Shown here piece after piece: positions 49,268 to 51,609 of a DNA stretch of 64,000 nt. The stretch covers positions 7,996 through 71,995 of the forward strand of contig CAWKMQ010000019.1 in assembly GCA_963850725.1 (NCBI GenBank), in the 5' to 3' direction. The stretch's first letter is position 1; each line of letters opens with the position of its first letter. This DNA is from Vicinamibacterales bacterium. GTDB taxonomy: Bacteria > Acidobacteriota > Vicinamibacteria > Vicinamibacterales > JAMQPK01. The position numbers were made by a program, and so were the translations under genes. Under the pieces are notes generated by a model, which saw nothing but the letters and a program-made list of their open reading frames with translations, was not told the origin of the DNA and ran no database searches.

Positions 49268-49583
49268 ATGAACCGGTCAGCGCTTGCCCTCGTCGCCGCC
49301 CTCGTGTGTGTCACCCCGTGGTCCGCGGAAGCCCAGCGCGCGTCCAAGCCGCCGGTCGCCGCGCCAACGGAGGTCATCAACCTCAACACCGGCACGGCGG
49401 CGCAAATCGCCTCGTTGCCGGGCATCGGCCTCAAAACGGCCGAGCTCGTCGTGCAGTACCCGCGAGAAGAACGGGCCCTTCAAGAAGATCGAGGAAATCA
49501 TGAACGTGAAGGGAGTCGGCGAGAAGAGCTTCCTCCGCATCAAGGATCGGCTCACCGTCGCCCAGCCGAAGAGCGAGAAATAA
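49268..49583 (+). CDS. comEA: ComEA-family helix-hairpin-helix DNA-binding protein with signal peptide
   Basis: AAGGAGG RBS; INLNT...LPGIG.KTA..(V)V.YREKNGPFKKIEEIMNVKGVGEK. Confidence 0.9.
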
Positions 49584-49586
49584 GCC

Positions 49587-50168
49587 GTGAAGAGCGAGGG
49601 CTACTCCGTGCTCGAGTTGCTCATGGTTGTCAGCGTCTCGATCGTGGTCGGCGGTACGGCGATACCGCTCGCGAACAACGGCGTCGACCGAACGAGAGCC
49701 GCAGGAGCAGTCCGCTACGTGGCCGGGCGCATGGCAAGCGCACGCTTCGAGGCCGTCAGGCGCTCGGCTTACGTCGCCATCCGGTTTGTGCAGCACAGCG
49801 ATGGGTTCTGGCTTCGCACCTACGTCGACGGCAACCGCAACGGCGTGTTGTCCGGCGACATCACGCGTGGCATCGACACGCCGATCACGCCAGACGAGCG
49901 GCTCGACCATCACTTCTCGGGCATCACGTTCGGCATTCTGCCCAACGTCACGGGCCTCGATCCGGGACAGCCCTTCAATGCGGGCGATCCGGTGCAAATC
50001 GGGTCTTCGACGCTGCTCAGCTTCAGTCCACTGGGGTCGTCGACGTCGGGCACGCTCTTCATTCGCGGCCAGCGGGGCACGCAATTCGCGGTGCGGGTGC
50101 TGGGCGCCACCGGCCGGACACGCACGTTCGAGTTCCACTTCGGAGAAGCCAGATGGCAAAGACGGTAG
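49587..50168 (+). CDS. FimT/GspH-like minor pilin
   Basis: Prepilin site G|YSVLE plus hydrophobic helix; ARFEAV; FSPLG; C-terminal GRTR. Confidence 0.8.
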   Translation: MKSEGYSVLELLMVVSVSIVVGGTAIPLANNGVDRTRAAGAVRYVAGRMASARFEAVRRSAYVAIRFVQHSDGFWLRTYVDGNRNGVLSGDITRGIDTPITPDERLDHHFSGITFGILPNVTGLDPGQPFNAGDPVQIGSSTLLSFSPLGSSTSGTLFIRGQRGTQFAVRVLGATGRTRTFEFHFGEARWQRR

Positions 50169-50483
50169 CCGTCGAGCGCCGCGCGGCGCCGCGAGTGTCG
50201 CCGGACGCAGCGAGCGGGACGAGATCGGGCGCGCCTTCGACCCGGACGGTCGGCGCGCATCATCGATTTGTCGTCCGTGGGCGCGCTCATCGAAACCGAC
50301 TGGCGTCTCTTGCCCGGCTTGCGCGTCGAGGTGCAGCTTGGCGATCCGGTGCCGCTGTGCAAGGTGGGTGCACGCATTCTCCGGTGTCACGTGGCCCTTT
50401 TGAGCCGCGAGCGGATCAGGTATCGGGCGGGTCTGTCATTCGACGAACGTATTCCCTTTGGGGAAGATACGACCCCAGCCTAG
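50153..50483 (+). CDS. Stand-alone PilZ domain protein
   Basis: ERRAAPR (RxxxR), DLSSVG (DxSxxG), YRAGLSF; one or more frameshifts. Confidence 0.8.
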
Positions 50484-50595
50484 TGCGGGTGTTCAACGGG
50501 CGACGAGACGGCACGGGTCACAGCAACGTGGGAAGACACTACCCGGAGGTTCAGTAACCTTGGACACACTCACTCCTCATTCCCCGAAAGATTCG

Positions 50596-51609
50596 ATGGC
50601 ATACGCCTTGTTTCAGCGTCACGCCATGCGACGAGACGGCGCGGCGGCGCTCATCGGCTCGAGCGCCGTCATGCGCGGCGTGCGCGAGCGTATCGAGCGG
50701 GTGGCCGCGACCGACTTCACCGTCCTCATCGATGGCGAGAGCGGCGTCGGCAAAGAGCTCGTCGCCCGGCAGATTCACGAAATCAGCGGGCGACGACGGG
50801 GGCCGTTCGTTGCCGTCAACTGCGCGGCGCTGGTCGAGTCGCTGCTCGAGGCCGAGCTGTTCGGCATCGAAGACCGTACGGCCACCGGCGTGCGCGGGCG
50901 GCGTGGCAAGTTCGAGTGTGCCGACGGCGGCACGCTCTTTCTCGATGAAGTCGCCGACCTGTCCACGGCGGCGCAGGCCAAGCTGTTGCGGGCGCTCCAG
51001 GATCTGGCCATCGAGCGCGTCGGCGGCAATGGCCTCCACCGTGTCAACACGCGCGTCATTGCGGCCACCAACAAGAAGCTGTCGGCCCAGGTGCAAGGGA
51101 AGCTGTTCCGGGCCGACTTGTTCTACCGCCTGTCGGGTATCGAGATTCACGTGCCGCCGCTGCGCGAGCGCCGCGAAGACATCCTCGAGCTCGCGTCGTA
51201 TTTTCTCGAACGGCACGCACAGGATCGCCGGCTTACCATCTCGCGGGCCGCGGGCGACGCCTTGCTCACCTACGACTGGCCCGGCAACGTTCGCGAGCTC
51301 GAGCGGATGATGGAACGCACGCTGACGCTCGCCCGTCATTCGACCATCGACGTCGCGGATCTCCCGATTCGTCTGAGCGACGGGTACGGCGACGTGCTGC
51401 TGCCGTCCATGGTCCGCAACGACACGCTGCGCGCGTGGGGAAGCCGGTACGTGCGGCTGGTGCTCGAACGGAGCGGCCGCAACAAGCGCAAAGCGTGTCG
51501 CGCGCTCGGAATCAGTTATCACACCCTGCAGGCCTATCTGCGGTACGCGCACAAGTTGCAGGCGAGCGGCGTGCAGGAATCGCCGCCGGAATATTCGCCG
51601 GATAGCTAG
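50596..51609 (+). CDS. Sigma54-interaction AAA+ / Fis-HTH regulator lacking an N-terminal sensor domain
   Basis: [39 protein letters not shown] position reads RTATGV; start at 50596 or 50626. Confidence 0.88.
   Translation: MAYALFQRHAMRRDGAAALIGSSAVMRGVRERIERVAATDFTVLIDGESGVGKELVARQIHEISGRRRGPFVAVNCAALVESLLEAELFGIEDRTATGVRGRRGKFECADGGTLFLDEVADLSTAAQAKLLRALQDLAIERVGGNGLHRVNTRVIAATNKKLSAQVQGKLFRADLFYRLSGIEIHVPPLRERREDILELASYFLERHAQDRRLTISRAAGDALLTYDWPGNVRELERMMERTLTLARHSTIDVADLPIRLSDGYGDVLLPSMVRNDTLRAWGSRYVRLVLERSGRNKRKACRALGISYHTLQAYLRYAHKLQASGVQESPPEYSPDS

Follow-up and report, generated by a model that had tools for sequence, protein, structure and literature searches.

A conserved comEA, minor pilin, PilZ and regulator cassette of Vicinamibacterales with a candidate role in DNA uptake

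The cassette described here lies in a window of 64,000 nucleotides (nt) from the Vicinamibacterales bacterium assembly GCA_963850725.1 (contig CAWKMQ010000019.1), where it occupies positions 49268..51609. It comprises four genes in the same orientation, which encode ComEA, an orphan minor pilin of the GspH/FimU/FimT fold, a single-domain PilZ protein, and an atypical AAA+/Fis regulator that resembles bacterial enhancer-binding proteins (EBPs). Only 3 nt separate comEA from the pilin gene, the pilin and PilZ genes overlap by 16 nt, and a gap of 112 nt precedes the regulator gene (Table 1). The four co-oriented genes and their spacings had been listed in a first-pass annotation made from the letters of the window, and coordinates and gaps are borne out by the window sequence. 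The genes, their order and the motifs of their orthologues are real; two frameshifts and a non-GAFTGA loop in the regulator had been overlooked. The same applies to a putative promoter and an RNA leader, which are both located in the spacer of about 320 nt ahead of comEA.

Table 1. Features of the cassette and its upstream region, in window positions
Feature	Position	Strand	Remarks
Integration host factor (IHF)-site-like element, TCAA-N4-(A/T)T	49027..49038	+	-12 box about 48 nt further downstream; position conserved across the genus
Sigma-54-type promoter (putative)	49064..49079	+	GG at 49065-66 (-24), TTGC at 49075-78 (-12); fixed GG-N10-GC spacing
Leader hairpin, 71 nt	49092..49162	+	Basal stem P1, 49092-49100 with 49154-49162; apical stem and loop, 49118-49135
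Variable hairpin-rich insert, about 55 nt, resembling repetitive extragenic palindromic (REP) elements	49192..49244	+	Separates the leader from the ribosome-binding site of comEA
comEA	49268..49583	+	Putative signal peptide and helix-hairpin-helix (HhH) DNA-binding domain; +1 insertion in the C-run 49459-49461
Orphan GspH/FimU/FimT-fold minor pilin, 193 residues	49587..50168	+	GTG start; prepilin site G/YSVLE; C-terminal GATGRTR
Single-domain PilZ	50153..50483	+	109 residues in intact orthologues; extra C at 50220
GGAAC..ACTACCC motif in the PilZ-regulator spacer	50530..50546	+	Conserved in the genus alignment; 50-65 nt upstream of the regulator start codon
Atypical EBP-like AAA+/Fis regulator, 337 residues, without input domain	50596..51609	+	L1 loop RTATGV at 50875-50892

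The cassette is real and is conserved across Vicinamibacterales, a soil order of the Acidobacteria. The pilin was found in 37 of 41 related genomes; 22 of 24 genus members have it, as do 14 of 16 genomes that represent other families of the order. All four genes occur together in 17 of the 20 genus loci, and the three exceptions consist of a contig end, a locus without comEA, and a locus with an insertion between the pilin and PilZ genes. The 14 loci from other families all contain comEA and the pilin, while the regulator is found in 13 and PilZ, searched for by tblastn, in 10. A scan of species-representative genomes yielded 79 public loci. In 78 of them comEA is located directly upstream of the pilin, 68 have PilZ downstream of it, and 63 contain the regulator. 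By title, nearly all of these are Vicinamibacterales or Acidobacteriota metagenome-assembled genomes (MAGs); they overlap the related genomes above and are related among themselves, and the counts are not independent. The gene order for which a synteny search had been proposed is kept order-wide.

The family assignment of ComEA is based on an intact orthologue (L002) of 104 residues, which is 97% identical and exceeds the cut-offs of both TIGR00426 (70.4 bits; cut-off 53.1) and PF12836 HHH_3 (67.3 bits; cut-off 27). Its N-terminus, MNRSALALVAALVCVTPWSAEA/Q (the slash marks the presumed cleavage site), resembles a Sec signal peptide when judged by eye, and the protein looks periplasmic on this account. 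Cassette ComEA is the best HHH_3 match in all four relatives compared (G004, G006, G024 and G038) and the only one in G038, a relative that is 100% complete. In the source genome, the frameshift-split pieces of ComEA score below a HHH_3 match on contig C33. Similar to the ComEA proteins of Gram-negative bacteria, for example that of Vibrio cholerae (PMC3879209), the cassette protein appears as a small exported HhH DNA-binding protein that passes TIGR00426. It differs in falling below the cut-off of the full-length comE model (66.5 bits versus 152.35) and in sharing its operon, behind a sigma-54-type promoter, with genes for a pilin and a PilZ protein.

The second gene product is recognised by the PF12019 GspH profile (29.2 bits; cut-off 21) and starts with a class III prepilin N-terminus, MKSEG/YSVLE, with glycine at -1 and glutamate at +5. 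Prepilin N-terminus and GspH fold together place it among the GspH/FimU/FimT minor (pseudo)pilins. The AlphaFold model, computed from 28 orthologues, has a predicted local distance difference test score (pLDDT) of 91.1. Structural matches to this model are EpsH (Z 12.2, root-mean-square deviation 2.4, 113 aligned residues), FimU (Z 12.0), XcpH (Z 11.7), GspH (Z 10.2) and Legionella FimT 7qyi (Z 8.5). Foldseek gave no match at E<=0.001, with chains of the GspH family at the top of its list. Among the 28 orthologues, the C-terminal segment LGATGRxR is conserved, with R179 invariant and R177 present in at least 90%, and W190 is invariant as well. The globular part is arginine-rich and basic, with a median net charge of +5 and a median isoelectric point of 10.2. 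A conserved cysteine pair is lacking, and the gene is an orphan. Across the public loci, the pilin tail contains RxR in 78 of 79 cases and GRxR in 68, in line with the GATGRTR ending that had been read from the window alone. A further element of this pilin is the segment D-G-N-x-x-G (DGNRNG/DGNGNG) at residues 81-86, which is invariant in 28 of 28 orthologues and by eye looks like a metal-binding loop.

In FimT of Legionella pneumophila, which has orthologues in other Gammaproteobacteria, DNA binding involves the GRxR arginines R146 and R148, and FimU has a weaker form of the motif (PMC8897410). The cassette pilin shares several traits with FimT, namely a fold of the GspH family, an orphan gene located outside the minor-pilin operon, the lack of a disulphide, an arginine-rich basic surface, and a GRxR motif just past the last conserved strand. 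By analogy, the cassette pilin is predicted to bind DNA through its RxR surface. The differences are considerable. A sequence relation to FimT is not detectable, and the structural alignment at Z 8.5 has an identity of 6%. In addition, the cassette pilin extends 14 residues beyond RxR, including the invariant tryptophan. It comes from a different phylum, is fixed beside comEA and PilZ, and its DNA binding is a prediction. Judging from the model, the protein is a GspH-fold minor pilin with FimT-like traits, while FimT orthology goes beyond the evidence. The first-pass identification as the competence pilin FimT is upheld with respect to the GRxR motif and is not borne out with respect to orthology: EpsH and FimU have higher Z scores, and GRPR occurs in another pilin of the genome.

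Of the three paralogous GspH-type pilins compared from the source genome, one has GRPR (contig C18) and the other two have GKIT and GKVQ. Since the C18 pilin has GRPR, the RxR motif is selective but not unique to the cassette pilin. The C18 gene (C18:5099-6103, minus strand) is located directly downstream of a PilE-like pilin gene. Its product, a GspH-type pilin that scores 49.5 bits with PF12019, contains a cysteine pair, ends in ...SGRPRTVVGAC and may represent the canonical FimT/FimU in this pilus.

Upstream of comEA, the GG and TTGC columns of the promoter are aligned across the genus. The GG and GC elements are spaced 10 nt apart, as in TGGCAC-N5-TTGC, and rpoN is present in the genome as a single copy. 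The pattern GG-N8-TTG[CA] is found in 75 of the 76 loci that have at least 330 nt upstream of comEA, and in 57 it is positioned 52-64 nt before the loop motif of the leader. A scan of 48850-51850 for sigma-70-like promoters gave 0 sites, and one terminator-like site was found in this region, on the minus strand. Taken at the level of sequence, these features point to sigma-54-dependent transcription of the cassette. The TCAA-N4-(A/T)T element further upstream resembles the IHF consensus. Another conserved block, GCAACCCGCGTAGACA at 48945-48960, immediately follows the stop codon of the epimerase-like gene, and the -24 element lies about 105 nt downstream of it. It is kept in much of the genus and may be what remains of a terminator or act as an upstream activator site.

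The leader hairpin begins right after the expected start site. It is composed of a 9-bp basal stem, a variable middle, an apical stem of 5-6 bp, and the loop GCCYGACC. In a MAFFT alignment of 22 genomes, 91.5% of the cells are paired, compared with at most 52.7% when the partners are slid. Changes on both sides are observed for 11 of 15 pairs, a value matched by 0 of 500 shuffles, and each leader sequence folds alike when folded alone. Rfam 15 returned no family for the leader at E<=10; within 47300-51800, only RNase P RNA and a chance-level microRNA model were obtained. The leader covariance model, R1, has one match in the source genome, where 150 of 6219 candidates were scored. It hits the expected place in 30 of 36 loci, 22 of which are model-building sequences, and finds matches in 33 of the 79 public loci. 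Possible roles of the leader are those of a 5'-terminal stabiliser, a protein-binding site or an attenuator. An anti-Shine-Dalgarno pairing just 3' of the hairpin, seen in the fold of the window, was dropped as it is not conserved in relatives. The REP-like insert that follows is present once in the window and in three tandem copies in locus L012 (about 1000-1150), and it is absent in several members of the genus.

The regulator combines an EBP-type AAA+ domain with a helix-turn-helix (HTH) at the C-terminus. PF00158 matches with 198.5 bits from residue 19 onwards and AAA_lid_14 with 77.6 bits. HTH_8 reaches 16.1 bits, below its cut-off of 22, and the HTH segment is strongly conserved despite this weak score. 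The Walker A and B motifs, GESGVGKE and LFLDEV, look intact. The GAFTGA motif is absent, as the L1 loop reads RTATGV without exception in 18 aligned orthologues, and RxATGV occurs in every L1 loop of this type among about 112 loci. The other 21 EBP loops found in the source genome are canonical, G[AS][FY][TS][GD]A. Of 401 Acidobacteriota genomes, 30 contain a back-translated pattern of the loop, each in a single copy, and these 30 belong without exception to this order (the source and 29 of 36 others). It was absent in both genomes from another order of the same class and in 362 of 362 genomes from other classes. As far as this pattern indicates, the regulator is an atypical EBP that, among the 401 genomes, is confined to this order. 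The AAA+/Fis architecture stated in the first-pass annotation is retained, and the label of a sigma-54 activator is doubtful in the absence of GAFTGA.

The description of the regulator as sensor-less is correct for this genus. In most other families of the order, the regulator has about 140 extra N-terminal residues, and the short form is limited to this genus and a few others. Because most relatives carry the N-terminal domain, the sensor-less form is probably derived. A Pfam search with the N-terminal domain of the long form gave no match, and an Atlas feature search provided a GAF lead with a score of 0.85; the domain is possibly GAF-like. The spacer in front of the regulator gene contains the conserved GGAAC..ACTACCC motif, a candidate promoter or operator of the regulator gene itself.

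EBPs of the PspF type consist of AAA+ and HTH without an input domain and are controlled in trans by a partner; PspF contains GAFTGA, and its partner is PspA. The cassette regulator has the same composition of AAA+ and HTH without a sensor, and the trans-partner idea of the first-pass annotation follows the same logic. It differs in scoring 245.4 bits with TIGR02974, for which the cut-off is 443.55, and in having PilZ rather than PspA as its candidate partner. Atypical EBPs are described as a class with variations of GAFTGA, often acting with sigma-70 (PMC6158489). With VpsR, TyrR, HupR, HsfA, PhhR and NtrX, the cassette regulator shares the EBP-type AAA+ domain, the Fis-type HTH and an altered GAFTGA loop. 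In contrast to these proteins, it has intact-looking Walker A and B motifs and a fixed RTATGV rather than a deletion, has neither a receiver nor an ACT domain, is located beside a sigma-54-type promoter, and is found in one order only. This leaves a puzzle, as a sigma-54-type promoter is combined with an adjacent regulator that lacks the sigma-54 contact loop, and a nearby canonical EBP is not conserved.

PilZ was identified with PF07238, which scores 25.5 bits on the C-terminal piece from the window and 27.9 bits on an intact orthologue (cut-off 22.5). In 20 orthologues RRxxxR (R9, R10, R14) is invariant, S40 and G43 are present in at least 90%, and the motif pair was found in 69 of the 79 public loci. 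The orthologues combine the domain with RRxxxR and (D/N)xSxxG and are in this respect putative PilZ-type receptors of cyclic di-GMP (c-di-GMP). The claim that PilZ keeps both motifs is accurate for these orthologues; in the window copy, the two motifs are located in different frames. Because the binding motifs are conserved, c-di-GMP binding by PilZ is likely.

Components of a DNA-uptake machinery are encoded elsewhere in the source genome. These are ComEC, which is split over two frames, DprA, a PilM-secretin cluster, further secretins, and many PilB/PilT-type (T2SSE) ATPases. A check of the genome for comEC, dprA and type IV pilus genes had been proposed; the genome also encodes RpoN. The sequence-based observations that had been named as refuting the first-pass proposal, i.e., a gene order that is not conserved, loss of GRxR, or a genome without comEC and type IV pilus machinery, were not made.

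The preferred interpretation is that the cassette supplies regulated DNA-receptor parts for DNA uptake mediated by type IV pili, to which a probability of roughly 0.55 is assigned. According to this model, a sigma-54-type promoter, probably with an IHF site, would start a transcript of which the first 70 nt or so fold into the conserved hairpin. The transcript would encode the periplasmic DNA receptor ComEA, the arginine-rich pilin of the GspH/FimT class and a PilZ protein of the c-di-GMP type, with the regulator as the next gene. On the pilus, the pilin would expose its C-terminal RxR as a basic surface, ComEA would retain DNA in the periplasm, and the pilus motor, secretin, ComEC and DprA would be supplied from elsewhere in the genome. 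The regulator, c-di-GMP or the leader may have a role in controlling the cassette; gating by c-di-GMP in particular is speculative.

Several observations weigh against this interpretation. The pilin is structurally nearer to EpsH and FimU than to FimT, and the alignment with FimT 7qyi stops at model residue 175, ahead of RxR. A sequence-profile search of solved chains matched only N-terminal pilin helices and did not reach FimT, and the GspH-type pilin on C18 also has GRPR. None of the genes of the pilus machinery is within the cassette. Without GAFTGA, the regulator may not act on the sigma-54-type promoter of the cassette, and a canonical EBP is not conserved nearby, with the upstream NtrC-like gene present in about 19 of about 112 loci. 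The pilZ insertion at 50220 is also present in the relative G004 and could consequently be real. Contigs from public runs that are free of the insertions are only about 96% alike and represent related strains, other than the source strain. Finally, a search of literature listings turned up no transformable Acidobacterium.

Two alternatives concern the target of PilZ, and they are equally plausible. In the first, c-di-GMP-bound PilZ acts in trans on the input-less AAA+ regulator and switches the cassette on or off, which is conceivable and rather unlikely on balance. The conserved binding motifs of PilZ, the 9 GGDEF matches in the genome and the missing input domain of the regulator in this genus speak for it. 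Moreover, c-di-GMP-responsive atypical EBPs are known, e.g., VpsR (PMC6158489). A further region of the source genome (contig C24:40830-48160, L133) encodes two input-less sigma-54 EBPs with canonical GSFTGA, with a single-domain PilZ (40.9 bits) located 3 nt upstream of one and a REC-PilZ gene following the other. The two pairs indicate that the neighbourhood of PilZ and an input-less EBP recurs in the source genome, which has 13 PilZ matches in total; this is an association only. On the other hand, most families of the order keep PilZ alongside a regulator with an N-terminal domain, so PilZ is not simply a replacement for a lost sensor. The regulator also lacks GAFTGA even though the promoter is of the sigma-54 type. 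A fused PilZ-EBP was not found with PilZ as the query, and two longer relatives (289-304 residues) lack an EBP domain, which is weak evidence. Co-folding of the regulator with PilZ and two c-di-GMP molecules gave a score of 0.00 against a mark of 0.32; as the prediction was made without control runs, it counts neither for nor against such an interaction.

In the second alternative, which is given the same low standing, PilZ acts on the pilus machinery, such as the extension ATPase, and c-di-GMP controls the assembly of pili that contain the cassette pilin. PilZ-type adaptors of a pilus ATPase are known in Pseudomonas and Xanthomonas. The pilZ gene appears co-transcribed with the pilin gene, the end of which it overlaps by 16 nt, and the genome encodes several PilB/PilT-type ATPases. 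However, an ATPase gene is located neither in nor beside the cassette.

A role other than transformation is considered unlikely. The cassette would then serve biofilm or surface behaviour or the attachment to extracellular DNA, or the pilin would be part of the pseudopilus of a type II secretion system (T2SS). Among the best structural matches of the pilin are the T2SS proteins EpsH and XcpH, several secretins and T2SSE ATPases are encoded in the genome, and c-di-GMP effectors usually accompany sessile traits. Against this reading, 78 of 79 loci have comEA linked to the pilin, the encoded protein is the main ComEA of these genomes, and both ComEC and DprA are present.

The two frameshifts raise the question of whether the cassette is intact in the source strain. 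In comEA, the HHH_3 and TIGR00426 matches are interrupted by the frame change, precisely at position 33/34 of the HHH_3 profile. When the DNA was compared with that of four relatives, whose pilin proteins are 93-99% identical, the lesion could be assigned to an extra C in the C-run. This insertion is absent in all four close relatives and in the covering contigs of all four public runs, which comprise three soil DNA runs and one RNA library. The extra C in pilZ, which places RRxxxR and DxSxxG in different frames, is absent in three of the four close relatives and in contigs of two runs, and is common to G004. The assembly as a whole has a completeness of 72.9% in 43 contigs. The neighbouring ligA-, htrA-, NtrC- and epimerase-like genes are each scattered over several reading frames (43136-49127, especially 46089-47473), and a dense run of 1-3-nt insertions relative to other genomes is located at 47470-47516. 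The broken genes differ from relative to relative. Apart from the insertions, the cassette proteins are 97-99% identical to their intact counterparts. Given the many indels of the assembly and the absence of the insertions from close relatives and soil contigs, both frameshifts are most likely assembly errors, with the pilZ one being less certain. The scattered neighbouring genes and the dense insertion run suggest an indel-rich long-read assembly, which affects any motif reading in the window.

Decay of the cassette in the source strain, with both frameshifts being real, is accordingly seen as improbable. It would agree with the sequence as given, which contains both frameshifts, and with the pilZ insertion, which is outside any homopolymer and shared with one relative. 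Against it stand the frame-breaking indels throughout the contig, the low completeness, the uniqueness of the comEA insertion to the source assembly, where it extends a C-run, and the close identity of the remaining protein to intact relatives. Contigs from the RNA library (run X17, about 95-98% alike) cover parts of all four genes. These contigs were not counted as expression, as their word share is 0.09 and DNA carry-over is possible.

The least probable proposal is a self-contained, doubly gated DNA-uptake switch, in which PilZ with c-di-GMP would act in trans on the order-specific EBP, the RTATGV loop would drive or block the sigma-54 promoter through a contact outside the GAFTGA rule, and the 5'-terminal hairpin, whose GCCYGACC loop is fixed, would be read by some factor as a second checkpoint at the RNA level.

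Acidobacteria are among the most abundant soil bacteria, and a search of literature listings on Acidobacteria and Vicinamibacter gave nothing on this system or on DNA uptake in Acidobacteria. The order-wide pairing of comEA and the pilin constitutes genomic evidence for FimT-like DNA-receptor pilins well beyond the Gammaproteobacteria, and it names two proteins. The locus also offers three regulatory handles, namely a sigma-54-type promoter with a structured leader that is uncatalogued, an EBP whose loop is fixed and differs from GAFTGA, and a recurring neighbourhood of PilZ and an input-less EBP. These are relevant to the mode of action of atypical EBPs and to the route from c-di-GMP to transcription. 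In more practical terms, reading frames need to be checked when motifs are read from long-read MAGs that are rich in indels.

Further observations relate to the surroundings of the cassette. Short tandem repeats, translated as repeated EVGSRK*, occur in the spacer between comEA and the pilin gene in the loci L006, L007 and L014; the window, with its gap of 3 nt, lacks them. Just 3' of the regulator gene, a GC-rich stretch with strong self-pairing extends over 51690-51796; its sole Rfam match is a chance-level microRNA model. It contains an exact direct repeat of 18 nt (51726-51743 and 51758-51775), for which the chance expectation is 0.1. Two small overlapping open reading frames at 52882-53524 on the plus strand resemble, by eye, an AbrB/MazE-type antitoxin and a PIN-domain toxin, and may form a VapBC-like pair. 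Upstream of the cassette, between the NtrC-like and epimerase-like genes, a full-length bacterial class A RNase P RNA is encoded on the plus strand at 47516-47935 (280.2 bits).

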